Shown here piece after piece: positions 2,988-38,738 of a DNA stretch of 64,000 nucleotides. The stretch comes from Candidatus Aenigmatarchaeota archaeon (GTDB lineage Archaea > Aenigmatarchaeota > Aenigmatarchaeia > QMZP01 > QMZT01), in contig JAFGCI010000006.1 in the NCBI GenBank assembly GCA_016932735.1, forward strand, positions 36,167-100,166, given 5' to 3'. Below the pieces are notes generated by a model. The model was not told the origin of the DNA, searched no databases, and worked only from the letters and a program-made list of their open reading frames with translations. Position 1 is the stretch's first letter. Every line of letters starts with the position of its first letter. The position numbers and the translations under genes are program-made.

Positions 2988-3050
2988 AAGAAATAATTAC
3001 ATGCGCTTTTTTATATTACTCAATATTTGCATATTTCTTAAGAAGTGAAA

Positions 3051-3133
3051 CGCTGGAACTGGGATTTGAACCCAGGAACCCCGAAGGGAACAGGGTTAGC
3101 AACCCTGCGCCTTAACCGCTCGGCCATCCCAGC
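3051..3133 (-). tRNA. tRNA-Ser (anticodon GCT), long variable arm, no intron
   Basis: Reverse complement is GCTGGGATGGCCGAGCGGTTAAGGCGCAGGGTTGCTAACCCTGTTCCCTTCGGGGTTCCTGGGTTCAAATCCCAGTTCCAGCG. It forms a 7-bp acceptor stem (one GU), an anticodon loop TTGCTAA (GCT), a long variable arm, a T-arm CTGGG/TTCAAAT/CCCAG and discriminator G. Confidence 0.8.
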
Positions 3134-3184
3134 ATTGGTATATCTTAAATGAAAACAATTAAATAAAAAGAAATGTGTTTGTTT

Positions 3185-3802
3185 TTACTGTTTTTTCTTG
3201 GTTGGTTTTCCCACGTCTTCTTTTGATGACGGTTTGACTTTGAGCCCGATTTCTTCAAGTTTTATCTTGAATTTGTCAAGCGCCTTGTATATGTCATCAA
3301 TCTTGTGGGCGCCTGTGCAGATTATCTTTCCCGAGCTGAACAGAAGGAATGCAACTCTCGGTTCCTGAATCCTGTAGACAAGTCCCGGGAACTGCTCCGG
3401 CTCGTATTCTGCATCCTCAAGAGCGAATGCGATATCATCAAGGCTTAATTTAGCATCGATTTTCGATGATGCTACTATATTCTCAATGTTCACCGGATAT
3501 TTCTTTGGCATCTTTATTCCTATTTCCTCAAGCTTGTCTGTTACCTTTTTCATTGCCGTGTGCGCAAGCTCGATGCTCTTCGTTCCGGTACAGACAATCT
3601 TACCTGATGAAAAGATAAGTGCCGCTGCCCTCGGGTCCTGCGTCCTGTAGACAAGTCCTGGGAACTGCTCCGGCTCGTATTCAGCGCTCTTAATAGAAGA
3701 GACAACATGATTCAAAGATATATCGACCCCCAGAACAGAAAAAGCTACAACGTTCTCAATCTTTATAGAGAACTTGCTCTTAGTCTCAGTTGGTTTTGGC
3801 AT
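3185..3802 (-). CDS. tbp: TATA-box binding protein (TBP)
   Basis: Two direct TBP repeats, each with 'EYEPEQFPGLVYR', 'FSSGKIVCTG' and 'KLEEIG'. The C-terminal tail is basic (KPSSKEDVGKPTKKKQ) rather than the usual acidic archaeal tail. Confidence 0.9.
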   Translation of the reverse strand: MPKPTETKSKFSIKIENVVAFSVLGVDISLNHVVSSIKSAEYEPEQFPGLVYRTQDPRAAALIFSSGKIVCTGTKSIELAHTAMKKVTDKLEEIGIKMPKKYPVNIENIVASSKIDAKLSLDDIAFALEDAEYEPEQFPGLVYRIQEPRVAFLLFSSGKIICTGAHKIDDIYKALDKFKIKLEEIGLKVKPSSKEDVGKPTKKKQ

Positions 3803-5677: not shown

Positions 5678-6499
5678 TCAGAATCTCTGAAAGTATTTTA
5701 CAAGCTCATTTGCGAATTCCCTTTTTTTATCCGGAAAGGCATGAGTCCCATCAAATTCAATCGTTTTGACATTTGCCCCGAATTCTTCTAGTCTTCTGGA
5801 AAGCAGCCTTGAGTTGTGTATAGTCATTATTTCATCGCCTTTCGCCGAGATTGTAAGAACATTAAGTCCTGTCAAATCTGGCTCCATATCACTAAAGGGC
5901 GTCTGCATCGACATAAGATTAATTAGGCTGCTTGCAATCTGGTAATATCCTTCTCCTCTAAGGTCGTTATACCCGAAAACTGGCTTCAGTACGTTGCCAT
6001 CGAGAAAAAACCCTTTGCCGTTTTTGCTGTTATGAAGTTCCGGATGCTTGAAAGGTCTCTGAAACATGTTCAGAAGCCCCTTACGGATATCGGTTCCTCC
6101 GCATCCTATAGCCATGCAGGATATATAGTCCTTTATTTGTTCTGCAACTCTTGCCATTGGATAACTGCTCAGGCTGATTGCAGCAAACATTCTCTTTTTT
6201 CTTTCGGGGTTTCTTCTTGCATATCCAATCAGCTGTTCTTCATGGACTATGTGATCATATCTCCTGATGGGGTGGCGGCCATGCCCCGGCAGGAATATAT
6301 AAGTCACTCCTATTCCTTCTCTGTTTGCTGTTTCATGTAAATACTGAAAAGTTTCTTTTTGTGGGTTTTCCAGATCGTTTCCCACGCCTGCAGAAAAGAC
6401 TATCTCTGAATCATTATTTCCGTATCTTATGAAAGGGACTTCGTATCTTCTGGATTTTCTTCCGACTGAATATGTCCCTTCGGCTGCCTGTAAACTCAT
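5678..6499 (-). CDS. hypothetical protein (273 aa)
   Basis: Long ORF with coding-like composition. No family recognised from the sequence. Confidence 0.5.
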   Translation of the reverse strand: MSLQAAEGTYSVGRKSRRYEVPFIRYGNNDSEIVFSAGVGNDLENPQKETFQYLHETANREGIGVTYIFLPGHGRHPIRRYDHIVHEEQLIGYARRNPERKKRMFAAISLSSYPMARVAEQIKDYISCMAIGCGGTDIRKGLLNMFQRPFKHPELHNSKNGKGFFLDGNVLKPVFGYNDLRGEGYYQIASSLINLMSMQTPFSDMEPDLTGLNVLTISAKGDEIMTIHNSRLLSRRLEEFGANVKTIEFDGTHAFPDKKREFANELVKYFQRF

Positions 6500-15960: not shown

Positions 15961-16647
15961 ATGAATATCGGGGGGTTTGTCAAGAACACGCTAATAGACT
16001 ATCCGGGAAAGATGTCGTGCATCATATTCACACAGGGATGTTCTTTCCGCTGTCCCTTCTGCCAGAACAAAGAGCTGGTTGACGTCCCCGATGATGCAGA
16101 ATCCATAAAGGAGTCATACATCTTTTCATTTCTCAAAAAAAGAAAAGGCTTGCTTGATGCGGTTGTAATAACCGGAGGAGAGCCGACACTTCAAAAAGAC
16201 CTTCCCGATTTCATAAGGAAAGTCAGGGAGCTTGGATTTCTCATCAAGCTCGATACCAACGGATGGGCTCCTGAAATTCTTGAAAGGTTGTTAAAAGAGA
16301 ACCTAATCGATTTTGTTGCAATGGACATCAAGGCTTCAAAGGATAATTATGAGAAGGCGGCAGGCGTCAAAGTAAATATATATAATATAGAGAAGTCAAT
16401 CCGCCTTATACGTTCATCAGGACTCCCATACGAATTCAGGACGACTGTCGTCCCCGGAATCCACGATAAAGACGACATCAGGAAAATGGCTCAGTGGATT
16501 GAAGGCTCAAACCTCTTCCTGCAGAAGTTCGTCCCTCAGAACACGCTTGACCCCGAATACGAAAAGAAGAATCCATTCACTAACAAGGAAATGGAAGAGA
16601 TGAAAAAGATTGCGGGGCAGTTTGTGAATTGTGGGCTGAGAGCTTAA
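15961..16647 (+). CDS. nrdG: anaerobic RNR activating enzyme NrdG (radical SAM)
   Basis: The 'GCSFRCPFCQN' CxxxCxxC cluster and 'VVITGGEPTLQ'. An alternative GTG start at 15952 overlaps the stop of the preceding small ORF. Confidence 0.8.
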   Translation: MNIGGFVKNTLIDYPGKMSCIIFTQGCSFRCPFCQNKELVDVPDDAESIKESYIFSFLKKRKGLLDAVVITGGEPTLQKDLPDFIRKVRELGFLIKLDTNGWAPEILERLLKENLIDFVAMDIKASKDNYEKAAGVKVNIYNIEKSIRLIRSSGLPYEFRTTVVPGIHDKDDIRKMAQWIEGSNLFLQKFVPQNTLDPEYEKKNPFTNKEMEEMKKIAGQFVNCGLRA

Positions 16648-16751
16648 TGTTCGCTTTCTGCCCGAATAGGGCGCAAATAACGAATAAAATTCGTTAAATA
16701 GTTGTTTTTCTCAATAGATTTTTCACTACTGGCTCTTGCTTCAATTGGTTA

Positions 16752-16765
16752 GGAAAACGGGGGGG
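16752..16765. repeat. left inverted repeat aaaacGGGGGGGGG (G9 homopolymer) of cassette 1
   Basis: Perfect reverse complement of 19299-19312. A second shared 12-mer (tagatttttcac, about 16716-16727) lies about 30 nt outside. Confidence 0.7.
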
Positions 16766-16810
16766 GGAGCTATAATACTATTTTATAAATAATGTTTTCA
16801 ATTTTGGAAT

Positions 16811-17683
16811 ATGCCGAAAAGAAATATGTTGTGGATTTCATTTGCTGTCATTTTTTTGATTTCATTTAGTGGGTGTATCCAACAAAACACGAAAGAAAAT
16901 GCAGAATCAATCGCACAGGAATTTGCTATAAATTTACAAAAATCAGACTATGAAAGCTTATATGATTTATTCATACCTGATCTCAAAAGCATGAGAAAAA
17001 AATCAGATTTCGTTAAATATGTGAATATAAAAGGATCGCCACTTGATAACAATTATATAATTTTTGACAAAGTCGTAATGCAGGGAGATAATGAAGCTTA
17101 TGCATATTATACGTTATCAAGTGGCATATTTGAGGCTAAAGTTCCTCCTATGCATTTGATTTTTACGTCGGAAGGTTGGCGTGTTGACGCATTTTCAGAT
17201 TACTTTTCTGCTGGATGCATCATAGATGATGACTGTTCAGCAGATTATCCTCGGTGTAGCAAAAATTTAGAATGTGTAAAATGTGTAAGTGATGCAGATT
17301 GCTCCGATTCGGGAAAGAAGCATTGTGATAGTGTTCTTAATATCTGTCATGAATGTATAGAAGATTACCATTGTCCCAAAGATAAACCAATATGCTATGG
17401 GTTTAGTTGTATTGAATGTAGGAAAAATTCAGATTGCCCAACAGAAACTCCATATTGTAATTATGTGTTAGGCAGTGGTTATGTTTGCAATAATAATCCT
17501 ACCGGGATAGAATGTATAGAGGATGTAGATTGTATCGTACTTTATGGAACAAAAAAGATGTATTGTAATGCGAATGGAAAGTATATTAGATTTACTCACG
17601 AGGATGAATGCATTTATTGCAGAGACGAATCAGACTGTCCTAGAGGAAAAGATTATTGCATTTCAGGTGAATTCTGTGTCTAA
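16811..17683 (+). CDS. putative lipoprotein with C-terminal cysteine-rich repeats
   Basis: Signal and lipobox-like 'FLISFSGC'. The C-terminal half has four 'C-x2-C-x3-5-DC-x5-8-C' repeats (e.g. CVKCVSDADCSDSGKKHC, CIECRKNSDCPTETPYC). Confidence 0.6.
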   Translation: MPKRNMLWISFAVIFLISFSGCIQQNTKENAESIAQEFAINLQKSDYESLYDLFIPDLKSMRKKSDFVKYVNIKGSPLDNNYIIFDKVVMQGDNEAYAYYTLSSGIFEAKVPPMHLIFTSEGWRVDAFSDYFSAGCIIDDDCSADYPRCSKNLECVKCVSDADCSDSGKKHCDSVLNICHECIEDYHCPKDKPICYGFSCIECRKNSDCPTETPYCNYVLGSGYVCNNNPTGIECIEDVDCIVLYGTKKMYCNANGKYIRFTHEDECIYCRDESDCPRGKDYCISGEFCV

Positions 17684-18104
17684 ACTTGGATATAGTGAAG
17701 ATGATAAAAGAAAACACCTTGAGTTTATTCAGTTGGCTATAAACAGAATGGCGGCTAATTCATTTATCCTAAAAGGTTGGAATATTACACTTGTTGTAGG
17801 TCTATTTGCTGTTTCAATAACAAAAAACCAAAATCTTTTTTTAATACTTGCTTTATTACCGGCCATTGCTTTCTGGGGTTTGGATTCATATTATCTGAGA
17901 AAAGAAAAACTGTTTCGTGAACTGTATAACTTTGTAAGGATGAGAGATAAGAGTCTAATAGATCCTTATTCATTGGAGACAAAGGAATTTGAGAAAAATA
18001 TCAAAAGTTGGTTTCATATACTATTTTCACGAACCGTGATAGTATTACATGGCCCCATAATTATATTTATTTTATGTTTTTCTATGATTCTATGGGGTGG
18101 TTAA
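17676..18104 (+). CDS. small 2-3 TM membrane protein (SLATT-like candidate effector), partner of the TIR-like protein
   Basis: It has an N-terminal amphipathic helix (DDKRKHLEFIQLAINRMAANSF). Three hydrophobic segments follow: 'WNITLVVGLFAVSI', 'LFLILALLPAIAFWGL' and C-terminal 'VIVLHGPIIIFILCFSMILWGG'. The stop TAA at 18102-18104 lies 2 nt before the TIR start. Start uncertain (GTG 17676 or ATG 17748). Confidence 0.5.
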   Translation: MSKLGYSEDDKRKHLEFIQLAINRMAANSFILKGWNITLVVGLFAVSITKNQNLFLILALLPAIAFWGLDSYYLRKEKLFRELYNFVRMRDKSLIDPYSLETKEFEKNIKSWFHILFSRTVIVLHGPIIIFILCFSMILWGG

Positions 18105-18106
18105 AT

Positions 18107-18598
18107 ATGGCAAGAAAAGTATTTTTCAGTTTTCATTATGAAAAGGATGCATGGAGAGCTGGACAGGTTAGAAATAGTAATGTCGTGCGTTCAGAAGATA
18201 CTACTGGATTCATAGATGCATCTGAATGGGAGAAAGTTAAAGAGAGAGGACAAGATGCAATTAAGAACTGGATTAATGAACAATTAAAAGGTACTTCGAT
18301 CACAGTAGTTCTAATTGGAAGTGAAACATCTGAAAGGGATTGGGTTAAATACGAACTTCAGAGAAGTTATGAAAAAGGAAATGCCTTTTTGGGGATATTC
18401 ATACATAATCTTGAAGATCAAGAAAAAAGAACAACGTCAAAGGGGGATACCCGATTTGGTGAATTAGGAAAAGATTCTGAAGGTAAATCTGTCTATTTAT
18501 TCCAACTCGCTAAGTTTTACGATTGGAAAAATGATGATGGTTACAACAATTTTACAAAATGGATTGAAGAAGCTATCTCAAACCAAAATGGAAACTAA
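18107..18598 (+). CDS. TIR-like domain protein (DUF1863 / ThsB-like)
   Basis: 'MARKVFFSFHYEKDAWRAGQVRN...ITVVLIGSETSERDWVKYELQRSYEKGNAFLGIFIH' carries the FFSFHY-x-D signature and the 'VLIGSET..R.WV.YE' pattern of Thoeris ThsB-type TIR domains. 163 aa from ATG 18107. Confidence 0.75.
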   Translation: MARKVFFSFHYEKDAWRAGQVRNSNVVRSEDTTGFIDASEWEKVKERGQDAIKNWINEQLKGTSITVVLIGSETSERDWVKYELQRSYEKGNAFLGIFIHNLEDQEKRTTSKGDTRFGELGKDSEGKSVYLFQLAKFYDWKNDDGYNNFTKWIEEAISNQNGN

Positions 18599-18975
18599 CT
18601 CTTCTTATACCCAAACTTCTTCTCATAATCCCTGTGGTTCATGATATCTAATATCAAAGAAATAATCTCGACTTCGTTGCCTCTTATAGTATATATCATT
18701 CTCCATGCTCCCGAAAGGTTGATTTTCCACAGGTTGTTTACATCATAATTTTTGATATATTCTTTTGGTGTTCTGTCTTTCGGGATATGAATTCCATATT
18801 GCGGGTTATCTCTTAACAACTCGATTTTCTGTTTAATAGAGTTAAGAAGCGTTTGGTGGTCACTGTTAGTAATACCCTTGGAAATCTCTTCGCCTACGAG
18901 TTTGTTCAAATCATCAAACTCTTCTTTAGCTTCTCCGGTAATAATGACTTTGGTGATCTTTCCTTTGAACATCAC
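18595..18975 (-). CDS. RelE/ParE-family type II toxin
   Basis: C-terminal 'NLWKINLSGAWRMIYTIRGNEVEIISLILDIMNHRDY' matches the RelE/YoeB-fold pattern. A 4-nt ATGA overlap links it to the upstream ORF. Confidence 0.7.
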   Translation of the reverse strand: MMFKGKITKVIITGEAKEEFDDLNKLVGEEISKGITNSDHQTLLNSIKQKIELLRDNPQYGIHIPKDRTPKEYIKNYDVNNLWKINLSGAWRMIYTIRGNEVEIISLILDIMNHRDYEKKFGYKKS

Positions 18976-19244
18976 AACTCAACTCCCTCTTTTATCGCCT
19001 TGTCAAGTTTCGGGCTGGGATTGTATATCCATAAAATTCCTTTCCTGCCGTCAATTATTTTACCGCTGTTCTCTAAATAGCTTAATATGACATTCAGCGT
19101 TTGGTGCATTATTTTTACAGGCAGTTTTTTCTTTATATCTTCCCGTGTCATTAATTCATTTGATTCCTTTAGAACTTCTTCTACCATTAACACAGTCTTC
19201 AGATTCGGGTAATGAATGACCTCGGCTTTTTGCATACAAAACAC
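18972..19244 (-). CDS. putative cognate antitoxin (90 aa)
   Basis: Upstream of the RelE-like gene on the minus strand and overlapping it by 4 nt. No antitoxin family recognised. Confidence 0.45.
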   Translation of the reverse strand: MFCMQKAEVIHYPNLKTVLMVEEVLKESNELMTREDIKKKLPVKIMHQTLNVILSYLENSGKIIDGRKGILWIYNPSPKLDKAIKEGVEL

Positions 19245-19298
19245 CTTGTATAAACTTATATAATATTATATATAGAAATATATAAACTTTTGCTTTCG

Positions 19299-19312
19299 CC
19301 CCCCCCCGTTTT
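19299..19312. repeat. right inverted repeat CCCCCCCCCgtttt (C9) of cassette 1
   Basis: Perfect reverse complement of 16752-16765. The 12-mer gtgaaaaatcta at 19343-19354 is the reverse complement of tagatttttcac at about 16716-16727. Confidence 0.7.
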
Positions 19313-19634
19313 CAATAACTTTGCGAGTTGGTTAGCTGTGAAGTGAAAAATCTACTCTCGCCTTCGGCTCGGTTTCCCTGCGGTCAACGAGAAAAACAGG
19401 AAATATGCGGGAAAACTATACAAAGTTGTTGAATTTTCCCCAAATTTCAGCTTCGCTGAAACTATCGCATATTTCCATCGGTTATGCTCAATTGCGAATC
19501 CGCCTCTGGCGAGGTTACCATAGAAAATTCTCTTGTTGTTGCCTTCGTTAAAATTCACAAAACGAAAAAATAACGAAATTGCTTTGCAAATCGTCTAACA
19601 AAATTTTAACGAAATTTTTTCTTATCTTTAACAA

Positions 19635-19645
19635 GGGTTGCCGCC
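19635..19645. repeat. inverted repeat gggttgccgcc (preceded by ttttttctt) bounding cassette 2
   Basis: Reverse complement of ggcggcaaccc at 20990-21000, which is followed by aaaagaaaaaa. Confidence 0.6.
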
Positions 19646-19646
19646 T

Positions 19647-20468
19647 TTACTTATCTTTCTCAATCAATACAAATAACATTAGAAGAAGCATAGTAGACCT
19701 TTGTTCATTATCATAGTTAATCTCTCTTCCATGTAAAATTGGGTGTCTGAAATCCTTTGAATAAACATTACTTTTAGTATGCTCGCCGAATTTTGAAGAA
19801 TTATTAAAAATTTTTATAATTAGTTCTCCCAGCGAACATTCTATTGGTTTTCCATTTTTCCCTAAAATTAAATTCCCTTTAACATCTATCAGATTTTTGC
19901 TATTAAATTTATTCTCGATTAATCCTTGATTAATTCCAATATCCCAAAGTATACCTTCAATTTGCGATAACAAAAGAGGAATAGAGCTTATATAATCCTT
20001 ATTTTTATGATGCTGAATAGCCTTTTCTAAAATCTTTTCTCTTGCTTTAATAATCTTATCCGTTCTTACCTTTGAAATCAATTCATTCAATAACTTGTCA
20101 TCTTCAAAATCAGATATTAGTTGTTTCCATACTTCTTCTTTTCCGCTCGCTTTAAGCTTATCCTTGAGTTCAGAAGCGTAAGACATTGATATTGCTTCAA
20201 TCCACCCAAATTCTTTAAGAAATTCTTCCCAGCCTTTGAAATCAAAATTTTTTGCTATCTCAGTAAGAGGTTTTAATGATTGTGCAATTGATTGAGATAG
20301 TAATTGCATTCTTTTAAATGGTTCAGTAAGTGCTTCCATTTGTGCCTGAAATTGCAGATTGAATAATTGAATTGGTGCCAGAGAAATAGAAATTTTATCA
20401 TGAAGTTCTTTCATTATTTTGTTTATTTGATCCAGATTATTCATTTGTATCATCTTCAAGTTCTTCAT
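19647..20468 (-). CDS. hypothetical protein with C-terminal HEPN-like Rx4H motif (candidate Abi-like nuclease)
   Basis: 273 aa, AT-rich. 'SKDFRHPILHGREI' fits R-x4-H. Lies 18 nt downstream of the SHOCT gene on the same strand. Confidence 0.45.
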   Translation of the reverse strand: MKNLKMIQMNNLDQINKIMKELHDKISISLAPIQLFNLQFQAQMEALTEPFKRMQLLSQSIAQSLKPLTEIAKNFDFKGWEEFLKEFGWIEAISMSYASELKDKLKASGKEEVWKQLISDFEDDKLLNELISKVRTDKIIKAREKILEKAIQHHKNKDYISSIPLLLSQIEGILWDIGINQGLIENKFNSKNLIDVKGNLILGKNGKPIECSLGELIIKIFNNSSKFGEHTKSNVYSKDFRHPILHGREINYDNEQRSTMLLLMLFVLIEKDK

Positions 20469-20486
20469 TGTCCATTTAAGACAGAA

Positions 20487-20942
20487 TTATAATCCAAGCA
20501 ATTTTTTCTTTTTTTGCTCAAATTCTTTTTGAGTTATAACTCCTTTCTTCATTAAACTATATAATTTCTCTATCTCATCTGCATCGCTAGAAGTAGATTT
20601 TTCTGAAGAACTATTTGCTTTCTCAATGTGTTCTTTTATTTCAAGAGCCTTTTCGTAATTATCTTTACCATTGAACGAAACCGTATTTTCATCACTTACT
20701 GCATTAAAAACGCCACCTCTAGCCTCAATACCTCCTGGCAAGGAAAATTGAATATATCCTGCGGTAAACCCTGGTTTTTTAATCTGAATTGAGGTTATAT
20801 TTTTGAAGTAAATATCTTTCTTTCCTTTTAACCCATGAATCATGAAACCCATTGCTGTTCCTCTATCTAGCCTAACAAATTTTTCATAAAGTTCTATTCT
20901 TCCATTTGTTCCTTTGAATTCAATTATTGGTTTTTGTTCCAT
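20487..20942 (-). CDS. SHOCT-domain protein with N-terminal bPH/DUF4429-like domain
   Basis: C-terminal 'EIEKLYSLMKKGVITQKEFEQKKKKLLGL' is a typical SHOCT motif. Start set at the internal MEQKPIIEF. Confidence 0.6.
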   Translation of the reverse strand: MEQKPIIEFKGTNGRIELYEKFVRLDRGTAMGFMIHGLKGKKDIYFKNITSIQIKKPGFTAGYIQFSLPGGIEARGGVFNAVSDENTVSFNGKDNYEKALEIKEHIEKANSSSEKSTSSDADEIEKLYSLMKKGVITQKEFEQKKKKLLGL

Positions 20943-20989
20943 GATAACACTATTATATCTAAGGAATTTATAAATTCTTCTAATTGAAC

Positions 20990-21000
20990 GGCGGCAACCC
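20990..21000. repeat. inverted repeat ggcggcaaccc (partner of 19635-19645)
   Basis: See the partner repeat. Confidence 0.6.
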
Positions 21001-21251
21001 CCAAAAGAAAAAACTACGGCAACAACGAATTTTCGGCGGACTCGCAACTCGAAATTTTTGCCTTCGGCATTGTTGCACTAAAATTTCGTCCTAACGGAGA
21101 GCATAACAGGGCTTAACCGACTACGAAACCTTGCAGGTTTCTCCGACCCAAATTTTTTCTTCAGCTCTGTTCCGCTTCGCTCCACGAGGAAGAAAAAACT
21201 TCCCTTAAGCCCGATGTTATACGCAGTTTCTATAACTAAAAAACAAGTCTC

Positions 21252-21371
21252 TACATCAAATCAACAAAGCTCGACCTTCCTTCGCCTGCAATCTTCTTCT
21301 CCTTCTTCTTCGGCTTTTTCAGGTAAGACATTCTTGTCTTGACCTTCTTGGTGGAAGTTGGCGCTTTCATA
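21252..21371 (-). CDS. small basic ORF (39 aa, MKAPTSTKKVKTRMSYLKKPKKKEKKIAGEGRSSFVDLM)
   Basis: Hand translation of the minus strand. Lys-rich; could be a small ribosomal or nucleic-acid-binding protein, or spurious. Confidence 0.2.
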
Positions 21372-21463
21372 TCCAATAATTAGCATTAAGATTAAAAACA
21401 GTTTTGCATGAAAACAACGCCCAAATTTAAATATTCTTCCTGACAATAGGTATTGATATAAAT

Positions 21464-21673
21464 GGGCTCGTAGCTCAGCCTGGTGAGGCTTTAAGCCTTT
21501 AGGCAATTAGAGCACCAGACTCTTAAACCCAGGATATGCCGAATTTCCTTCTGGAAATGATGACTTGGAGATATCTGGGGGTCGCGGGTTCGAAACGGTA
21601 TTTGCAAAGTAATTTGTAAATGTGTTTCATGATGCACCATGCATCAGTTGCCGGTGAAATCCCGTCGAGCCCA
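21464..21673 (+). tRNA. tRNA-Lys (anticodon CTT) with three putative introns
   Basis: Exon 1 is GGGCTCGTAGCTCAGCCTGGT (21464-21484). Exon 2 is AGAGCACCAGACTCTTAA (21509-21526). Exon 3 is TCTGGGGGTCGCGGGTTCGAA (21574-21594). Exon 4 is TCCCGTCGAGCCCA (21660-21673). Spliced, they give a 74-nt cloverleaf with a 7-bp acceptor stem, D-stem GCTC/GAGC, anticodon stem CCAGA/TCTGG, loop CTCTTAA and T-arm GCGGG/TTCGAAT/CCCGT. The introns are about 24 nt (D-loop 20/21), about 47 nt (37/38) and about 65 nt (T-loop 59/60). Confidence 0.55.
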
Positions 21674-21676
21674 TTT

Positions 21677-22315
21677 TTATTTATCAGGAAGCCTGTTTCT
21701 TGTATTCCTTTCTACCTGCTTCTTGTAGCCGTAATCGACTTTCTTTGCTGTTGCGAAAAGGGCCGCCGGTATAGCGAATATTCCGATTGCGCTTTTCCAC
21801 GCGGCTTCCTGAACGGTTTTGGGCGGTTCTTTTAAGAAATAATTGGCCGTTGCCCCGACTGCGGCAGCTTCTGCAATCATGCCGGCTGGGTGCAAAATCC
21901 TTCTGGATGTGGTTTTGAACTTCCTCCTCACATGCTGTCCAAATCTTCTGAAATGGCTGTCATAATTGAAATTGCTCCTTCCTGTAATCCTCTTCCTGCT
22001 CTCGCTGTAATTGAAATACACGCGTCCCGTCTTGCCTGAGTCGTTGTTTGTGACGTAAGCAACACCATCATAAGAATCCGTTTTGTTGGTTCTTGCCCTG
22101 AATTTTTTATCTCCTGTAGCTATTTCTATAGTGCCAATACTGTAATCAACGCCAATCTTTCGTCTTGGGACAAGGCTGTTCCTTAGTTTGGTATAAATTG
22201 CAGAATGCTGATATCCTTTTAACCTGCTGGTTTGCTTCTTCGGGTCAAGATATACACTCTTCATTATTTCACCAATTACGAGTATTTTGTCACCAAATCT
22301 TATAAAACTAACCAC
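21677..22315 (-). CDS. hypothetical protein (212 aa)
   Basis: The ORF ends 4 nt downstream of the tRNA-Lys 3' end. Confidence 0.45.
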   Translation of the reverse strand: MVSFIRFGDKILVIGEIMKSVYLDPKKQTSRLKGYQHSAIYTKLRNSLVPRRKIGVDYSIGTIEIATGDKKFRARTNKTDSYDGVAYVTNNDSGKTGRVYFNYSESRKRITGRSNFNYDSHFRRFGQHVRRKFKTTSRRILHPAGMIAEAAAVGATANYFLKEPPKTVQEAAWKSAIGIFAIPAALFATAKKVDYGYKKQVERNTRNRLPDK

Positions 22316-22341
22316 TATAGAATGATAATTGGTGTGGTTTT

Positions 22342-22737
22342 ATGGCAGAGCTGTATTTGCATAAGATTCCTGCAGGAACAAGCAAAAGGATAGGCGGTGT
22401 AGTTTATTCTTTTAAAAAAGATTTTGTGATTCAAAGCACTTCAAGGAACATTGCTCAATCCCCGGGAAGCCCCCATTACGCGCGCTTCACCTTGGAGTCG
22501 GGAACCGTCATAGATGCGACAGGAAGAATCCCTGAAGATTGCCATGTTTATGTTACAGGGAAGGTGTTTGAAACATATAGAAGGCTTAGCAAAAAGAAGA
22601 AGAGGGCCGGAGAGAGTCCGTTTAAGATGGGTAATGAAGAAAGGATGGACTTAATGGAACTCTCTGAAATCGTCAACGAGGAGAAAGTCCGTAAAAAACC
22701 CGGAATCTGGAGATTGTTTCCGGTTATCGATTTCTGA
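22342..22737 (+). CDS. hypothetical protein (131 aa)
   Basis: ORF only. Confidence 0.4.
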   Translation: MAELYLHKIPAGTSKRIGGVVYSFKKDFVIQSTSRNIAQSPGSPHYARFTLESGTVIDATGRIPEDCHVYVTGKVFETYRRLSKKKKRAGESPFKMGNEERMDLMELSEIVNEEKVRKKPGIWRLFPVIDF

Positions 22738-23219: not shown

Positions 23220-24701
23220 GTGTACGGGATGCCATATATCGATATAATTGACTCTTTCTACAAGGAGAGGGGATGGGTAAAATTCCAGATTGAATCTTTT
23301 AATAATTTCATTGATTTCGGGCTTCAGAAAATCATCAATGAGGTCGGAACGATAAACATAGGACAGGAAGGTCTTGAAGACTTCAAGATAAGGTTCGGGA
23401 AAGTCACTGTCGGGAAGCCGGCGATAAAGGAAGCGGACGGTTCCGTAAGGATGATATACCCTAACGAGGTCAGGACAAGAAGCCTGACATACATAGCTCC
23501 GGTCCATGTCGAGATTATCCCTATTTTCAACGGCGTCCAGGAGAGGAGCGAGACTGTCCATATAGGCGATCTTCCAATCATGATAAAGTCGAAGCTCTGC
23601 AACATCACGAACCTCACTGAGAATGAGCTTGTCAAATACGGCGAGGATCCTTCCGACCCGGGCGGGTATTTCATTATAAACGGCACGGAAAGAGTCCTTA
23701 TTCTGATTGAGGAGATTGCATCGAACAAGCCCATATTCGAAAAGACCGAAGACGACGGGGCCATTAAGGTCAGAGTCAATTCGCAAAGAAGCGGATTCAA
23801 GCAGAGGCATCTGGTCGAGATGACGAATTACGGCGAGATAACGATTTCCTTTGCCAATATACACAAGCTTCCCATTGTTGTTCTGTTAAAATCGCTCGGT
23901 GTTGAAACCGATAAAGACATTTGTTCTATGATTTCTTCCGATGAAAAGATGCTGAATGCATTTTATGTGAATCTATATGAAACCAATGTCATAAGCATGG
24001 CCGAAGCCGTGGATTTCATAGGAAGGAAGCTGAAGATATCCGAGGATTACAGGGTTGAGAGGGTCAGCCAGATTCTCGACCGTTACCTGCTTCCGCATCT
24101 GGGACAGGATCCTGCGGATAGGTTAAGGAAGGCCAAATACCTTTCAAGAATAATTAAGAGGACTATCAAGGTCCAGATGGGCGATGCTCCGAGGGATGAC
24201 ATAGACCATTATTCCAACAAGAGGCTGCTAATGTCCGGAAATCTTCTGGAAAACCTTTTCCGTTCCATCCTTTTAGGAAGGTGGGGCCTGATAGCAAAGA
24301 TGACTTACAACTATCAGAAGCTTATCAAAAGAGGGAAAATCCCGTCTCTGCAGTCTATAATTGAAGCTAATACGGTAACGAAGCAGATACTTTCATCGCT
24401 AGCGACGGGAAACTGGATAGGAGGCCTTACAGGCGTTTCACAAAGGCTTGACAGAGGCTCCCACAGGAAGACCGTCTCCCATCTGAGGTCGGTGGTATCG
24501 CCGCTGACAACAACCCAGGAGCATTTCAGGGCGCGTCAGATTCATCCGACAGAGTGGGGACGACTTTGCCCGGCCGAGACGCCGGAAGGTTCTTCAATCG
24601 GACTGAGAAAGCATCTTGCTTTATTGAGCGAGATAACCCCCGGTTTATCGATTGAAGAGGAAAGGGGCATAATGAAGCTTGTCGAGGGCAAGTGCAGTTA
24701 A
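23220..24701 (+). CDS. rpoB2: RNA polymerase subunit B'' (N-terminal part of split RpoB)
   Basis: Shows the conserved N-terminal RpoB/Rpb2 regions. It sits immediately upstream of B'. Confidence 0.9.
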   Translation: MYGMPYIDIIDSFYKERGWVKFQIESFNNFIDFGLQKIINEVGTINIGQEGLEDFKIRFGKVTVGKPAIKEADGSVRMIYPNEVRTRSLTYIAPVHVEIIPIFNGVQERSETVHIGDLPIMIKSKLCNITNLTENELVKYGEDPSDPGGYFIINGTERVLILIEEIASNKPIFEKTEDDGAIKVRVNSQRSGFKQRHLVEMTNYGEITISFANIHKLPIVVLLKSLGVETDKDICSMISSDEKMLNAFYVNLYETNVISMAEAVDFIGRKLKISEDYRVERVSQILDRYLLPHLGQDPADRLRKAKYLSRIIKRTIKVQMGDAPRDDIDHYSNKRLLMSGNLLENLFRSILLGRWGLIAKMTYNYQKLIKRGKIPSLQSIIEANTVTKQILSSLATGNWIGGLTGVSQRLDRGSHRKTVSHLRSVVSPLTTTQEHFRARQIHPTEWGRLCPAETPEGSSIGLRKHLALLSEITPGLSIEEERGIMKLVEGKCS

Positions 24702-24707
24702 GGTGTT

Positions 24708-26522
24708 ATGATGACAGCAAAGAAAGAGCAGGAAAGAGCTGACGTTTATACCAACGGAATCTTCATAGGGGAAACAATAAAGCCTCTTGAGCTTGTGGAA
24801 GAGATAAGGAAAAAGAGAAGATTCAACATCATATCCTCCCAGATTAATGTGGCTTACTTCCCTGAAACAGAAGAGATAAGAATAAATACCGATTCGGGCA
24901 GGGCCAGAAGGCCTGTTGTTATTGTTGAAAATAAAAAACCGAAGCTTACCGACGAGCATATCAAGAAACTGCAGTCTGGTGAGATTGGGTGGTCATACCT
25001 GATTGAACATGGCATAGTTGAATATCTCGATGCTGAAGAGGAAGAAAATTCCTGCATTGCGATGAACCCTGATGGGGTAGAAAAGAACCACACACATGTT
25101 GAAATCCACCCTTCCATAATGCTCGGAACATCCGCCAATCTCATACCCTTCGCGGAATTCAACCGTGGCGACCGTGTAAACTACGGAGCCAAGATGGTGG
25201 GGCAGTCCATCGGAATGTTTACCAACAACTTCCTTGTAAGGACCGATACAAAATTCAACATACTCACATATCCGCAGGGGCCTCTGGTGACGACAAAAAT
25301 AGACAACATAATGGAAGAACATCCATACGGACAGAATATTGTCATTGCTGTAATGTCATGGGACGGTTACAACCTTAACGATGCTGTTGTGCTGAACAAG
25401 TCTTCAATTGACAGGGGCATGTTCAGGTCATTCTATTTCAGAACATATGAAACCCTCAAGAAAAAATACTGGGGAGGCCAGGAGGATACCATTGGAATCC
25501 CCGAGCCAGGAATAAGAGGTCATAGAGGCGATTCGGCTTATACAGAGCTGGATGTGGATGGTCTCATAAACCCGGAGACTGTGGTAAGTTCAGATGATGT
25601 GCTTATAGGAAAGACATCACCCCTGAGATTCCTTTCCAGCGAGGACATGATGAGCGACATCGAGAACAAGAGGGAATCGTCGCTGACCGTCAGGTATGGC
25701 GAGAAAGGCATTGTCGATGGCGTCTTCATGAGCGAAACAGTTGATGGTAACCAGATGTTCAAGATAAAGATAAGGGATGAAAGGATACCGGAACTGGGCG
25801 ACAAGTTCGCCACAAGGCACGGCCAGAAGGGTGTTGTTTCCCTCGTTGTTCCGGGAGAAGATATGCCTTATACCAGAGATGGCGTTGTTCCTGATTTAAT
25901 ATTCAATCCGCACGGCATTCCTTCAAGAATGACCGTCGGGCAGCTGCTCGAAATAATAGGCGGCAAGGCCGCGGCCCTTCAGGGCGAGAAGGTTGAAGCA
26001 TCAATCTTCAATGCAACGAAAGAGGAAGACATAAGAAAAGCGCTTGAGAAATTCGGTTTCAGGAATGACGGCAAGGAAATACTTTATGATGGAAGGACCG
26101 GAAGGAAGTACGAGGTCATGATATATACCGGTATGGCATTCTATATGAAACTTGACCATATGGTCGCCAACAAGATACAGACAAGGGGACGCGGCCCGGT
26201 TGCTCTTCTCACGAAACAGCCAACAGAAGGCCGTTCGAAGAAGGGCGGTTTGAGATTAGGAGAGATGGAGCAGCAGTGTCTGATGGCGCATGGCGCATCA
26301 CTCACTTTGAATGAAAGATTCAACTCCGATATGGTCTCCCTGCCGATATGCGCTAAATGTGGATTGCTGGCAATACACGACGAGATAAAGAACAAGAGCC
26401 ATTGTCCGGTGTGCAAGGAAGCCGACATCATATGGGTCAACACATCATTTGCATTCAAGCTTATGCTTGAAGAGATGAAATCCATGATGATATACCCGAG
26501 ACTCGGGGTTGAGGAGATTTGA
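24708..26522 (+). CDS. rpoB1: RNA polymerase subunit B' (C-terminal part of split RpoB)
   Basis: Contains 'GDKFATRHGQKGVVS' and 'NPHGIPSRMTVGQLLE' plus a C-terminal Zn-binding CPVC. Confidence 0.9.
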   Translation: MMTAKKEQERADVYTNGIFIGETIKPLELVEEIRKKRRFNIISSQINVAYFPETEEIRINTDSGRARRPVVIVENKKPKLTDEHIKKLQSGEIGWSYLIEHGIVEYLDAEEEENSCIAMNPDGVEKNHTHVEIHPSIMLGTSANLIPFAEFNRGDRVNYGAKMVGQSIGMFTNNFLVRTDTKFNILTYPQGPLVTTKIDNIMEEHPYGQNIVIAVMSWDGYNLNDAVVLNKSSIDRGMFRSFYFRTYETLKKKYWGGQEDTIGIPEPGIRGHRGDSAYTELDVDGLINPETVVSSDDVLIGKTSPLRFLSSEDMMSDIENKRESSLTVRYGEKGIVDGVFMSETVDGNQMFKIKIRDERIPELGDKFATRHGQKGVVSLVVPGEDMPYTRDGVVPDLIFNPHGIPSRMTVGQLLEIIGGKAAALQGEKVEASIFNATKEEDIRKALEKFGFRNDGKEILYDGRTGRKYEVMIYTGMAFYMKLDHMVANKIQTRGRGPVALLTKQPTEGRSKKGGLRLGEMEQQCLMAHGASLTLNERFNSDMVSLPICAKCGLLAIHDEIKNKSHCPVCKEADIIWVNTSFAFKLMLEEMKSMMIYPRLGVEEI

Positions 26523-26578: not shown

Positions 26579-29074
26579 ATGACAAGTAATATTAATTCAC
26601 TGGAATTCGGAATACTAAACCCCGAAATGGTCAGGCAGATGGCAACGATACGCATAGTTACATCTGATCTTTACGATGCTGACGGCTACCCGGTTGATGG
26701 CGGTGTAATGGATTCAAGGATGGGTGTCATTGACCCCGGAATGAGATGCAGGACATGCGGCGGCAACATTGACCAGTGCAAAGGTCATTTCGGCTATCTG
26801 GAGCTTGCAAAGCCTGTTGTTCATGTTTTATTTATCAAGGTCGTTTACAGCCTGATAAAGTGCACCTGCCAGAAATGCGGCAGAATCCTTACGAAATCAG
26901 AGAAGATCGGCCTTGAGAAGCTTGCAAAGAACATCCCTGCAAAATGCCCTTACTGCGATGCGCAGCAGAAAAAGGTTGTTTTTATCAAGCCGTACACGTT
27001 CAATCTGGGAAAAGATGAATTCGATTCAGAGAAAGTCAGGGAGATGTTTGAGAAAATACCGGACGAGGATCTGAAAAAAATCAAGTTCAGAGGCGGAAGG
27101 CCTGAATGGCTAGTGCTCACTCTTCTGCCGGTTTCGCCTGTCAATACAAGACCGTCAATTACGCTGGAAACGGGTGAAAGGTCCGAAGACGATCTTACAC
27201 ACAAGCTTGTCGACATTGTCAGGATAAACCAGTCACTCAGGGAGAACATAGACATAGGCGCTCCCGAATTCATTATCAACGATTTATGGGAACTTGTGCA
27301 GTATCATGTTTCAACCCTTTTTGATAACGAGCTTACGGGAATACCACAGGCACGGCATAGGTCGGGAAGGCCTTTGAGAGGGATGATACAGCGTCTGAAA
27401 GGCAAGGAAGGAAGAATAAGGGGAAATCTTCTCGGTAAGAGAGTCAACTTCTCAGCAAGGACTGTCATTTCACCTGATCCCATGCTTTCGGTAAATGAGG
27501 TAGGGGTTCCCGAAGAAGTTGCCAGCGAACTGACTATACCTGAGCATGTCACACCACTGAATATTGAGGTGGTAAAGAATATGATACTCACCGGCAAGGT
27601 TAATTACGTCCTGAGGCCGGATGGAAGAAAGATTAAAGTCACTGACGATAACAGGAATGACCTGATAAGGCTCATTGACAAAGGATGGATTATCGAGAGG
27701 AAGTTAAAAGATGGCGATGTGGTTCTTTTCAACAGACAGCCTTCGCTTCACAAGGTTTCAATAATGGCTCATTATGCTGTAGTCATGCCTTACAAGACTT
27801 TCAGGATGAATCCCTCGGTCTGCCCGCCATACAATGCAGATTTCGATGGGGACGAAATGAACCTCCATGCCCTGCAGACGCAGGAAGCAAGGACTGAAGC
27901 CTCCCTGCTGATGGATGTCAAGCATAACATAATATCACCGAAATTCGGAGGATCCCTTGTCGGCTTGGATCTGGACCAAGTTACAGGAATTTATATGCTT
28001 ACGAAAAACGGCGTGGAGTTTACACCTGAAGAGGCTGCAGACATGCTGGCAAGCGCCGGCATCGACGCCGAGCTTCCCAATAAAAAGAAAATAACAGGGA
28101 AGGATCTTGCAAGCATTCCCATCCCGAAAGAAATAAATATGAAATTTAAGGCCAATATATGCAGGCAGTGCGCAAAATGCGTCGGAGAGGATTGCAAGAA
28201 TGAGGGAATGGTTGTTATAAAGAAAGGCCAGCTGATATCAGGTGTCCTTGACAAGACGGCTATCGGCGCTTTTAAGGGAAAGATAATCAACAAGATAAAC
28301 ACGCTTGGTGACGACGAGCAGCTCAAGAATTTCATTGACGTTATGGGAAGGCTCGGGACTGCATATCTCATGAAGAGAGGCCTCACCATTGGTATTTCTG
28401 ATATAGATCTTTCGAAAAGCGTTATGAACGATATCCAGAAAGATATACAGGACGCTGTCAGTAAAGCCAACAAGCTCATTTCCAAGTATAATGAAGGGAG
28501 CATAAGGGCACTTCCGGGAATGACTGCCAAAGAGTCTCTCGAGGCACAGATGCTCAACACTCTTGCAGGTGGTCTGAACGAAGTCAGCAAGATAGTCGTG
28601 AAGAACATCTCATACAGTGATATTATCGCGATGACAGAATCCGGGGCAAAGGGGTCCAATATCAACACGACCCAGATGGCGGCATGCGTAGGTTCGGAGA
28701 CCATCCTCGGTGAAAGGATACAGAGAGGGTACATGGGCAGGACTCTTCCCCATTTCGAAGTGGGCGATTTGTCTGCCGCATCGCATGGTTTTGTAGCCCG
28801 CGGTTTTAAGGAAGGTCTTCTTCCGTATGAGTTCTTCTGGAACCTCATGAACGGAAGGGAAGGACTTATGGATAAGTCACTGAGGACAAGGAAATCCGGT
28901 TACATGCAAAGACGTCTTATAAACTCTCTTCAGGATCTCAAGGTCTTTGATGACATGACTGTAAGGGGTTCCAACGGGGAGATTATCCAGTTCTTTGCAG
29001 GCGAAGACGGAATAGACCCGTCCAAGTCGGACTGGGGCAAGCTGGAGTGGCAGAATTATATTACGGTTGGATGA
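26579..29074 (+). CDS. rpoA1: RNA polymerase subunit A' (RpoA1)
   Basis: N-terminal Zn motifs and the catalytic '[13 protein letters not shown]' motif. Confidence 0.9.
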
Positions 29075-30503
29075 TGTTATGATGAAGTTACCGGAAAAGA
29101 TTGAACAGCAGGTTGAGGAATTCGCCAAAGAGAAGAAAATGACTCCTGATAAGAAGAAGAAGCTTCATGAAGAGGTCATGACGGCGTACAAAATGATGCT
29201 CTATTCACCTGAAGAGGCTATAGGCATCATAGCGGCCCAGTCTTTATCTGAGCCTGCCACGCAGATGACAATGCGAACATACCACTTTGCAGGTACTGCA
29301 GGTATACAGGTCACGCTCGGTCTGCCGAGGATTCTTGAGATATTCGATGCCAAAAAGGAACCAGAAACCCCCGCAATGACTATTTATATTGACAAGAAAC
29401 ACCAAACAGAACCCAAAGTTACCCATATAGCGGAGATGATTAAGGAAGTCAAGCTGAAGGATGTCGTCACAACAAGCATCATGGATGTCATAAACATGGT
29501 AGTAAAGTTCAGGCTGAACGATGAGAAAATCAAGAGGCTCGAAATAGATATCAAGAAGGTGTCATCCAAGATAAAAATCAAGAACATTGAAATAGGAGTT
29601 CAGGGAAAGGACCTCGTTGTGACTTCAAAGAAGGAAAATATAAACATCCACAAGCTCAGGTACAAGATACTTGAGAGCCATGTAAGCGGCATCAAAAACA
29701 TATCACAGGTCATAATTCAGAAAGATGAATTCGACGAATGGGTCATACATACCTTAGGTTCGAACCTGAAGAAGGTATGCGAGATAGAAGGCGTAGATGG
29801 AACAAGAACTACGACGAACAATATATTCGAAATCAAGGAAGTATTCGGTATAGAAGCCGCAAGGAACGCCATAATAAAGGAGGCAATGCACACCATAGAA
29901 GAGCAGGGCCTTGGTGTTGATATAAGGTATGTCATGCTTCTTGCGGACATAATGACATTCAATGAAAAGATAATGGGCATCGGCAGGTATGGCATTGCCG
30001 GGCACAAGCATTCAATAATCGCTAGGGCTTCCTTCGAGGAAACAAAGAAACATCTTATTGATGCGGCTGTCAAGGGTCTGAAAGACGACCTTTCCGGCTC
30101 AGTCGAGAATATAATAATGAACAAAGTCGCTCCCATGGGAACAGGAAGCTTCACGCTCATAGGCAGTCTTCCAAAGGTCCCTTCCGAAATCAAAAAGGAG
30201 TACGAGAAGATTGAAAAGGAAATGACAAAAAGAAGGGAAGAGGTTGAGGCTGAAAGGCTGAAGGTTCTGGAAGAACAGAAGCAGGCCGAAAAGGTTGCTG
30301 AAGAACCAAAAGCTGAACTCCTCACAGAAGAACCGAAGACAGAAAAACAGAAAGAGGAGAAGGCAGCCAAAAAGACTGAAAAGAAGGCAAAGGTTGGGGA
30401 GAAGACCAAGAAGGAGCCAAAGACAAGAATTGCTAAGAAAAAACCGGCTACAGAAAAAGCCAAGAAGTCTGCTTCTTCTGAAACGAAAAAGAAAAAGAAA
30501 TAA
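29067..30503 (+). CDS. rpoA2: RNA polymerase subunit A'' (RpoA2) with about 110-aa K/E-rich C-terminal extension
   Basis: A''/Rpb1 C-terminal homology ('[24 protein letters not shown]', '[18 protein letters not shown]'). The tail after about residue 370 is lysine/glutamate-rich low complexity ending in KKKKK. Confidence 0.85.
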
Positions 30504-38459: not shown

Positions 38460-38738
38460 TCCCGGGAAGGAGAATTTCAGCCTTATTTTCCCAAATTTCC
38501 TTTGAACTTGAGTTTCATCTCTGCGCCAGCAGAGTGGTTCCGACTTTTGAACTCCTAACCTATCGGTCTCAAAACCGAGCGATTGCGTCCAACAAACACA
38601 CTCCACAGACCGTGGCTTCGTCATCGTGCGCCCGTCTACAGCCGATCGCTCTAATACCCGAAAACTCCGTCGTTGAATTTCTTTGCCGACACATGAAATG
38701 TGTCTTTCCAGAGTTCCACCAGGTTGAGCTACCCCGGG
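38460..38738 (-). tRNA. tRNA-Tyr (anticodon GTA) with three putative introns (same positions as tRNA-Lys)
   Basis: GC-rich ORF-free 279-nt segment flanked by cccggg on both sides. On the minus strand, exon 1 is CCCGGGGTAGCTCAACCTGGT (38738-38718). Exon 2 is AGAGCGATCGGCTGTAGA (38652-38635). Exon 3 is CCGATAGGTTAGGAGTTCAAA (38566-38546). Exon 4 is TCTCCTTCCCGGGA (38473-38460). Spliced, they give a 74-nt cloverleaf with acceptor CCCGGGG/TCCCGGG, anticodon stem ATCGG/CCGAT, loop CTGTAGA and T-arm AGGAG/TTCAAAT/CTCCT. The introns are about 65, 68 and 72 nt. Confidence 0.55.

Follow-up and report, generated by a model that had tools for sequence, protein, structure and literature searches.

Can a piece of archaeal DNA that the common tRNA finders pass over hold a working tRNA gene, and by what route would its transcript become a tRNA? 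This question is raised by positions 21464-21673 on the forward strand of a 64,000-nt stretch (the window) of contig JAFGCI010000006.1, from a Candidatus Aenigmatarchaeota archaeon. Judging from sequence comparison, the span is very probably a functional gene for tRNA-Lys(CUU), disrupted by three protein-spliced archaeal introns, in a Micrarchaeota-related archaeon of the DPANN group. The gene is 210 nt long and consists of four exons and three introns, which are located in the D-loop, at the canonical position 37/38 and at position 59/60.

Anatomy and conservation of the tRNA-Lys(CUU) gene

A preliminary description of the window had placed a tRNA 5' end and a matching 3' end 210 nt apart, and direct reading of the sequence bore this out, with GGGCTCGTAGCTCAGCCTGGT starting at 21464 and CCCGTCGAGCCCA ending at 21673. 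It had also proposed that the removal of about 24, 47 and 65 nt would leave a 74-nt cloverleaf with the anticodon CTT. Excision of 21485-21508 (24 nt), 21526-21572 (47 nt) and 21595-21659 (65 nt) gave a 74-nt product that was called and folded by ARAGORN as a canonical tRNA-Lys(ctt) with discriminator A, an acceptor stem of 7 bp, a D-stem of 4 bp, anticodon and T stems of 5 bp each, and the T-loop UUCGAAU. A 75-nt product, obtained with a first intron of 23 nt, was likewise called tRNA-Lys(ctt), so the cloverleaf is restored on exon joining in both versions. The parts of the gene and its flanks are as follows, with intron 1 given in the 23-nt version.

21426-21435 (+), TATA-box-like element TTTAAATATT, which precedes the mature 5' end by about 34 nt and, to judge from its sequence, is a probable promoter element
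21464-21483 (+), exon 1, with the acceptor 5' strand, the D-stem 5' strand and the D-loop to G19 (GGGCTCGTAGCTCAGCCTGG)
21484-21506 (+), intron 1, 23 nt, position 19/20, placed by motif scan and constrained folds
21507-21525 (+), exon 2, with U20(U20a)A21, the D-stem 3' strand, the anticodon stem 5' strand, the loop CUCUUA and the anticodon CUU
21526-21572 (+), intron 2, 47 nt, canonical position 37/38
21573-21594 (+), exon 3, with A38, the anticodon stem 3' strand, the variable loop, the T-stem 5' strand and UUCGAA (54-59)
21595-21659 (+), intron 3, 65 nt, position 59/60
21660-21673 (+), exon 4, with U60, the T-stem 3' strand, the acceptor 3' strand and the discriminator A73; CCA is not encoded
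21674-21684 (+), T-rich tract TTTTTATTTAT directly 3' of the gene, from its sequence a likely archaeal terminator

The G+C content was 61% in the exons and 38-44% in the introns, compared with 43% in the window. Upstream of the gene, a AAATTTAAATATTCTTC block was conserved 5' of the orthologs L005, L011, and L012 (described below), and a TTTAAAT box was located 5' of L006, L007, and L009.

As the preliminary description had anticipated, standard scans were silent on this gene. ARAGORN in default mode and Rfam cmscan at gathering thresholds, both run on the 64-kb window, reported a single tRNA, tRNA-Ser(gct) at 3050-3134 (-), and left the unspliced tRNA-Lys gene unreported. ARAGORN with introns allowed (-i, -i0,200) found no tRNA in 21301-21850, and Rfam at E<=10 gave no partial tRNA match across the unspliced gene. 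Two other calls in this region were set aside. A tRNA-Leu(taa) with a 127-nt "intron", returned by ARAGORN for the raw region at a lowered threshold, was rejected as spurious, and a sub-threshold Rfam match to SCARNA7 (E 0.7) over intron 2 and exon 3 was taken as noise, probably due to AUGAUGA.

The gene was then compared with an ortholog set made up of one genome locus (L002) and eight metagenome loci (L005-L012), which represent seven distinct orthologs: L005/L008 (identical), L006, L007, L009, L010, L011, and L012/L002. L012 is an unmasked metagenome copy of L002. In L002, a mask of 100 N at 5796-5895 lies exactly over intron 3 and the 3' exon, and L012 supplies the sequence. The 37/38 and 59/60 introns were present in all seven distinct orthologs, and the D-loop intron was absent from L006 and L009, which have an uninterrupted D-loop, and present in the others. 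Intron lengths in the window gene and the orthologs ranged from 23 to 125 nt. In addition, every spliced ortholog product was called tRNA-Lys(ctt) by ARAGORN.

Pairwise identity was 91-100% in the exons and 31-62% in the introns, the latter being about the level of unrelated sequence in global alignment, except for intron 2 of L006 and L007 (95%). The exons are under purifying selection and the introns are not. When the 5 distinct spliced sequences were aligned, 21 of the 21 cloverleaf pairs proved standard in every one of them, and compensatory changes had affected two acceptor pairs (5:68, C-G/U-A; 7:66, G-C/A-U); when partners were slid by one column as a control, pairing fell to about 52%. 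Because the covarying acceptor nucleotides sit 190-310 nt apart in the DNA, selection acts on the spliced molecule.

Splice-site geometry and competing explanations

Archaeal tRNA introns are recognized at the BHB (bulge-helix-bulge) motif, a 4-bp helix between two 3-nt bulges, and at the canonical site the first two anticodon bases lie in the helix (PMC4090602). This geometry fixes the register, so that each cut is placed two nt 3' of the central helix. Our rule-based motif scan was permissive, with dozens of background hits per precursor, and it served solely to work out the geometry of those junctions that the exons had defined beforehand, since geometry alone is weak evidence. Folding of a BHB or relaxed hBH motif at the proposed junctions had been named beforehand as a test of the gene structure, and a motif could be formed at all three, only in the relaxed form.

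At intron 1, the motif scan and constrained folds gave a central helix GCCU (15-17a)/AGGC, bulges GG↓U and AA↓U (arrows mark the cuts), and an inner hairpin GAGGC/GCCUU; the outer helix, formed by the D-stem, is offset, A14 intervening on one strand and UA on the opposite one. At intron 2, the outer helix is provided by the anticodon stem, the central helix joins C32-U35 (CUCU) to GGAG (intron positions -6 to -3), and the bulges are UA↓A and AU↓A. This is an hBH-type relaxed motif with no adjacent inner helix, and its 3' end, GAGAU↓A, is invariant across all orthologs. At intron 3, the T-stem is the outer helix, UUCG (54-57)/UGAA the central helix, AA↓A the 5' bulge, and CGGUA/UGCCG the inner helix; the 3' bulge has just 2 nt (A↓U60), which makes this motif relaxed as well. 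The designed structure of intron 3 (-24.8 kcal/mol) lies 1.3 kcal/mol from the local minimum (-26.1 kcal/mol). The strict canonical register with UUCG/GUGA as central helix was tried for the window intron 3 and failed, and UUCG/UGAA with the 2-nt 3' bulge fits.

Strict motifs were found at the equivalent sites in L005 and L012. At 59/60, the canonical 3-4-3 geometry, ending in YGAA-NN↓U, was present in L005, L006, L007, L009, and L012, as well as in a tRNA-Tyr gene of the window that is described below. No canonical motif was found for intron 1 of L010. Since all three motifs of the window gene are relaxed, they call for a splicing endonuclease of broad specificity, and such an enzyme is implied in the host.

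The preliminary description had further suggested that the flanks of intron 2 extend the anticodon stem. This part did not hold. The helix formed by CCCAGGATAT and ATATCTGGG exists but competes with the anticodon stem: its partner is made up of nucleotides 38-44, so that it replaces the stem and buries the 3' splice site. The CCCAGGATAT/ATATCTGGG helix therefore lies outside the splicing motif, and the helix relevant to splicing would be CUCU/GGAG.

With regard to the D-loop, the intron most likely follows G19 (19/20) and comprises 23 nt, 21484-21506, giving a 75-nt product with the D-loop AGCCUGGUUA. The preliminary description had named D-loop, 37/38, and 59/60 sites, and these stood; its D-loop position 20/21 with 24 nt was less well supported. 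The evidence comes from L012, whose D-loop motif is strict and shares this register (central helix GCCU/GGGC, cuts GG↓C and AU↓U, inner helix GGCAA/UUGCC). The base after G19 in L012 is C, so the 5' exon must end at G19, and transfer of this register to the window gives 21484-21506. The D-loop intron of the tRNA-Tyr gene is in the identical 19/20 register. We consider a real tRNA gene with another exon-intron structure, for example a D-loop intron at 20/21 or a T-loop intron at 58/59, the less probable arrangement. The 24-nt alternative, 21485-21508, is sequence-equivalent and leads to the 74-nt product with the D-loop AGCCUGGUA. Repeats of T/T and A/A make several junction cuts equivalent in sequence, the offset outer helix of intron 1 allows a 3' cut one nt later, and the 9-nt D-loop of the 74-nt product is more typical. 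Against such boundaries stand the cuts GG↓C and AU↓U in L012, the shared register of tRNA-Tyr and, at 59/60, orthologs that show a canonical UUCG/YGAA helix followed by NN↓U60.

Several observations weigh against a gene with three protein-spliced introns. The D-loop cut is ambiguous by one nt, leaving a 74-nt or a 75-nt product; none of the three window motifs is strict (offset outer helix, no adjacent inner helix, and 2-nt 3' bulge); and no splicing endonuclease (tRNA_int_endo), RtcB, or other splicing gene was present among the open reading frames (ORFs) of the 64-kb window. In addition, the unconstrained minimum free energy of the precursor, which includes the competing intron-exon helix, was -78.6 kcal/mol, compared with -73.7 kcal/mol under cloverleaf constraint. 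Forcing the cloverleaf stems thus costs 4.9 kcal/mol in the window, and it costs nothing in L005, whose unconstrained minimum-energy fold is the cloverleaf with strict motifs. A decaying pseudogene, that is, a former tRNA-Lys broken by three unrelated insertions such as miniature mobile elements and yielding no tRNA, would explain why standard tools do not recognize the gene, why its motifs are all relaxed and why the near-identical strain L011 carries a wholly different third insert. It would not explain why seven distinct orthologs keep exons of 91-100% identity and an intact cloverleaf amid freely diverging inserts, nor why the promoter box is conserved. The compensatory acceptor changes require selection on pairing across the inserts, and the inserts are found exactly at motif-capable sites with constrained 3' ends (GAGAU↓A and YGAA-NN↓U). 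We regard a pseudogene as very improbable on these grounds. Self-splicing group I or group II introns are less probable still. Archaeal group I introns are on record, in a publication that mentions Micrarchaeota as well (PMC6125680), but lengths of 23, 47, and 65 nt are far below the size of a group I/II ribozyme core, no Rfam intron family was detected at the locus, and the junctions match the geometry of BHB motifs.

For the favored protein-spliced gene, we infer that splicing takes place along the following route. The gene would be transcribed, probably from the upstream TTTAAATA box, into a precursor of about 210 nt or more. The junction pairs would fold into relaxed BHB motifs, with the D-stem/D-loop, the anticodon stem/loop, and the T-stem/T-loop each supplying one strand, and a broad-specificity splicing endonuclease would cut each strand two nt 3' of the 4-bp helix at the centre. 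Once an RNA ligase had joined the four exons, RNase P had removed the 5' leader, and CCA had been attached, the predicted product would be a tRNA of 74-75 nt reading AAG.

Comparable genes have been described in ARMAN-2 (Candidatus Micrarchaeum acidiphilum). According to Fujishima et al. (2011, PMC3239211), disruption affects 56% of the tRNA genes in this organism, among them cases of a 59/60 hBH intron and of two introns per gene, and archaeal tRNA genes with up to three introns were already known. The examples given there include pre-tRNA-Cys(GCA), whose hBH intron sits at 59/60, and pre-tRNA-Pro(GGG), which has two introns in the T-loop, and the epsilon2 endonuclease of ARMAN-2 cleaves strict and relaxed motifs in vitro, 59/60 hBH introns among them. 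Disrupted and unpredicted tRNA genes have been reported across DPANN (PMC5829648), and Kaneta et al. indicated that incomplete tRNA sets imply unidentified disrupted genes that require manual curation. The window gene is similar to the ARMAN-2 genes in its broad lineage (DPANN, Micrarchaeota-related), its non-canonical introns including 59/60, its relaxed motifs, its multiple introns per gene, and the need for manual curation. It differs in having three introns in one gene, one of them in the D-loop at 19/20, and introns of 23-125 nt are found here and in the orthologs, compared with 13-25 nt in the tested ARMAN-2 examples. A conserved kink-turn module, described in the next section, is present in the canonical intron, and no such module was seen in the searched passages of PMC3239211. 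Because heavily disrupted tRNA genes and 59/60 introns are already documented in the ARMAN-2 group, the gene is a further case of a known type; the three-intron tRNA-Lys is correct and useful for annotation, and it will not surprise a specialist.

A second point of comparison is the Thermoproteales. Both 20/21 and 59/60 have been listed as intron positions, along with a Pyrobaculum tRNA-Pro that holds three introns (PMC4090602); in the tRNA-Pro(UGG) of Pyrobaculum islandicum, they interrupt the gene at 25/26, 37/38, and 56/57 (Sugahara et al., 2007, as cited in PMC4090602). As in those genes, one canonical and two non-canonical introns of BHB type are combined in a single tRNA gene. The host here belongs to DPANN and not to Crenarchaeota, the non-canonical sites are 19/20 and 59/60, and the architecture of the endonuclease is probably different. 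Three-intron tRNAs with the recurrent sites 19/20, 37/38, and 59/60 are thus added to a lineage outside the Thermoproteales.

A conserved kink-turn-consensus module in the canonical intron

Two elements of intron 2 stood out in the folds and the ortholog comparison.

21528-21537 (+), intron segment CCCAGGATAT, which pairs with 21571-21579 (AT↓ATCTGGG) in the unconstrained minimum-energy fold
21539-21563 (+), module with the kink-turn consensus, CCGA, hairpin AUUUCC/GGAAAU, 3-nt bulge GAU, then GA, identified by ortholog comparison and covariation

The core of intron 2 had the same order in 7 of 7 orthologs: a segment complementary to AU↓AUCUGG(G), 1 nt, NNGA, a hairpin, a bulge GAU/UGU, GA, 4 nt, and GAGAU↓. 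A kink-turn is defined by a 3-nt bulge followed by tandem G-A/A-G pairs beside a Watson-Crick helix (PMC5689011). All seven orthologs agree with this consensus at the level of primary sequence, and the putative Watson-Crick C-helix covaries in 5 of 5 pairs. In the hairpin, compensatory changes were observed in each of the 5 pairs, 93% of cells were paired, and 0 of 500 shuffles matched the covariation score. A covariance model trained without L002 and L012 recovered both at full length (39.4 bits, E ~1e-6), and a search with the covariance model found no further significant copy of the module in the window. Every ortholog also preserves the complementarity of the CCCAGGATAT segment to the exon (94% of cells paired). 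This duplex of 8-9 bp with AU↓AUCUGG(G), a candidate guide duplex, contains a bulged G in the window copy; because its partner strand is invariant exon, no covariation is possible.

These features suggest a possible role, which we offer as a lead and not as a result. The canonical tRNA-Lys(CUU) intron of this DPANN clade may be a conserved functional RNA module rather than neutral sequence, in which a kink-turn, probably bound by L7Ae, is linked to a segment complementary to the 3' splice junction and to the anticodon stem's 3' strand. Such a module might serve as a single-kink-turn cis-guide for 2'-O-methylation of U39 or as a protein-dependent conformational switch between the closed helix and the weak splicing motif, which would set the timing or order of splicing. 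The proposal is tentative, and we think it rather unlikely to be right as it stands; the conserved kink-turn is a testable lead on intron function all the same.

The guide version of this idea has a precedent. A box C/D guide RNA is nested in the archaeal tRNA-Trp(CCA) intron and directs the formation of Cm34 and Um39 (Clouet d'Orval 2001; Singh 2004; both as cited in PMC4090602), so that U39 is one of its two targets. The tRNA-Lys intron resembles it in being a canonical 37/38 intron with a RUGA...NNGA kink-turn. It can also pair with the anticodon stem's 3' strand, which puts U39 at the fifth position upstream of the box; this conformation and the splicing motif are mutually exclusive. The two differ in that the present intron has one C'/D'-like kink-turn and no terminal C/D pair, that the tRNA is tRNA-Lys, and that methylation is a prediction. 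A full box C/D sRNA in intron 2 was considered and rejected, since the single kink-turn is C'/D'-like and the intron ends carry no RUGAUGA/CUGA pair.

It is unlikely, in our view, that the kink-turn serves as a C'/D'-like half-guide, with the 9-10 nt 5' of NNGA pairing to the 3' junction, through which U39 would be 2'-O-methylated ahead of splicing in the manner of the Haloferax tRNA-Trp intron (C34, U39; PMC4090602). The layout GAUAU-N-NNGA-hairpin-RUGA is invariant in the 7 orthologs, with a covarying stem and a guide complementary to the exon. When NNGA is read as box D' (our own derivation), U39 is the partner of the fifth nucleotide upstream throughout the orthologs, and 4 of the 7 have U:U at position 3b:3n, the pair also seen in box C/D kink-turns. 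The single kink-turn without terminal C and D boxes, on the other hand, amounts to an incomplete box C/D RNA, the bulged G interrupts the guide duplex of the window copy, and no gene for fibrillarin, Nop5, or L7Ae was found in the 64-kb window. No C/D family was above the Rfam threshold at intron 2, where the SCARNA7 match mentioned above is sub-threshold. The conserved complementarity may also simply stabilize the hairpin.

Host, a second three-intron gene and neighboring features

The window carries archaeal genes, namely TBP (3185-3802), a split RpoB (23220-24701 and 24708-26522), RNA polymerase A' (26579-29074) and A'' (29067-30503), and Cbf5. RpoA' is 79-84% identical to proteins of metagenome-assembled genomes (MAGs) labeled "Candidatus Micrarchaeota archaeon" or "uncultured archaeon" and 44% identical to that of a Woesearchaeota MAG. 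The protein encoded next to the tRNA gene (ORF 21677-22315 (-)) is 100% identical to an NCBI protein labeled "Candidatus Aenigmarchaeota archaeon". Because of this archaeal gene content and the relatives of RpoA' and the neighboring protein, the host is, to judge from these matches, a DPANN archaeon related to Micrarchaeota. The preliminary description had taken the multi-intron tRNA as a taxonomic signal; the archaeal host agrees with this, and RpoA' and the neighboring protein point to DPANN and not to the best-known lineages of the Thermoproteales type. The phylum labels given by depositors conflict, being Aenigmarchaeota for the tRNA-adjacent protein and Micrarchaeota for the closest relatives of RpoA'.

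A custom scan for T-arms and acceptor complementarity revealed another three-intron gene, tRNA-Tyr(GUA), at 38460-38738 (-), 279 nt. Its introns are as follows.

38718-38654 (-), intron 1, 65 nt, after G19
38635-38568 (-), intron 2, 68 nt, position 37/38
38545-38474 (-), intron 3, 72 nt, position 59/60

The spliced product of 74 nt was called tRNA-Tyr(gta) and has the archaeal C1:G72 pair, and the unspliced gene was missed by ARAGORN and Rfam. Its motifs are in the same registers as those of tRNA-Lys, with ACCU/GGGU, GG↓U, and AU↓U in the D-loop and UUCA/UGAA, AA↓A, and AU↓U in the T-loop; no canonical BHB motif was found for its 37/38 intron. This 37/38 intron contains a possible kink-turn (GCG-CAC-GA-UGACGAA/UUUGUUG-GA-CGC). 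Two custom scans of the window, one based on the T-arm and acceptor complementarity and the other on acceptor and D-arm features, recovered only tRNA-Ser, tRNA-Lys, and tRNA-Tyr.

Since standard finders miss both three-intron genes, genomes of this clade seem to lack tRNA-Lys(CUU) and tRNA-Tyr. Apparent tRNA loss of this kind distorts inferences on completeness and codon usage for DPANN MAGs, a problem that has been flagged before (PMC5829648).

Intron 3 of tRNA-Tyr (38474-38545 (-)) is similar to intron 3 of the L012 tRNA-Lys, the two sharing UCGGAACCA, a hairpin, and AUGAAAC ... UGAAAU (z 7.3 versus shuffles). Related introns in different tRNA genes are also a feature of the intron-transposition model for Thermoproteales (PMC4090602), and the similarity suggests that introns may move or be exchanged between tRNA genes at the same site. 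With the presence and absence of introns, full intron replacement between near-identical strains, and related introns across tRNA genes, the ortholog set is useful for studying intron gain and exchange.

The 3' part of the tRNA-Lys gene differs between near-identical strains. In L011 (95% identity upstream), exons 1-3 and introns 1-2 are identical to those of the window and the third intron is wholly different, with 125 nt (L011 694-844 versus window 21595-22733). L011 is without 1.06 kb located 3' of tRNA-Lys in the window, which holds the hypothetical ORFs 21677-22315 (-) and 22342-22737 (+), and similarity returns at window position 22734. No duplicated 3' exon was found for this downstream difference. 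Integration of a mobile element at the tRNA 3' end, for which a duplicated att site is expected, was rejected because the window has no second copy of TCCCGTCGAGCCCA beyond chance.

Directly upstream of tRNA-Lys, a 4.8-kb island of low G+C content (34-37%), 16640-21423, is absent at the syntenic locus L002. It looks like a strain-specific defence islet beside the tRNA gene and encodes the following proteins.

17544-18104, PDC-M50A-like protein
18008-18598, ThsB/PDC-M50B TIR protein
18595-18975, ParE-like toxin
20487-21047, SHOCT/DUF4429 protein

In the orthologs L006, L007, L009, and L010, introns 2 and 3 of tRNA-Lys contain a small hairpin repeat, UGACG...CGUC followed by YAUYGAAA(S), and in L007, L009, and L010 this repeat is also found in the leader that separates the promoter box from the start of the tRNA. 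A mobile mini-element or a leader processed by the endonuclease may account for it. Finally, our scans flagged putative tRNA-like genes with T-loop inserts at L003 3179-3455 and 3544-3780 (-), in a Woesearchaeota MAG, and at L010 949-1106 (-), beside tRNA-Lys. By these candidates, T-loop introns seem to be widespread in these DPANN genomes.

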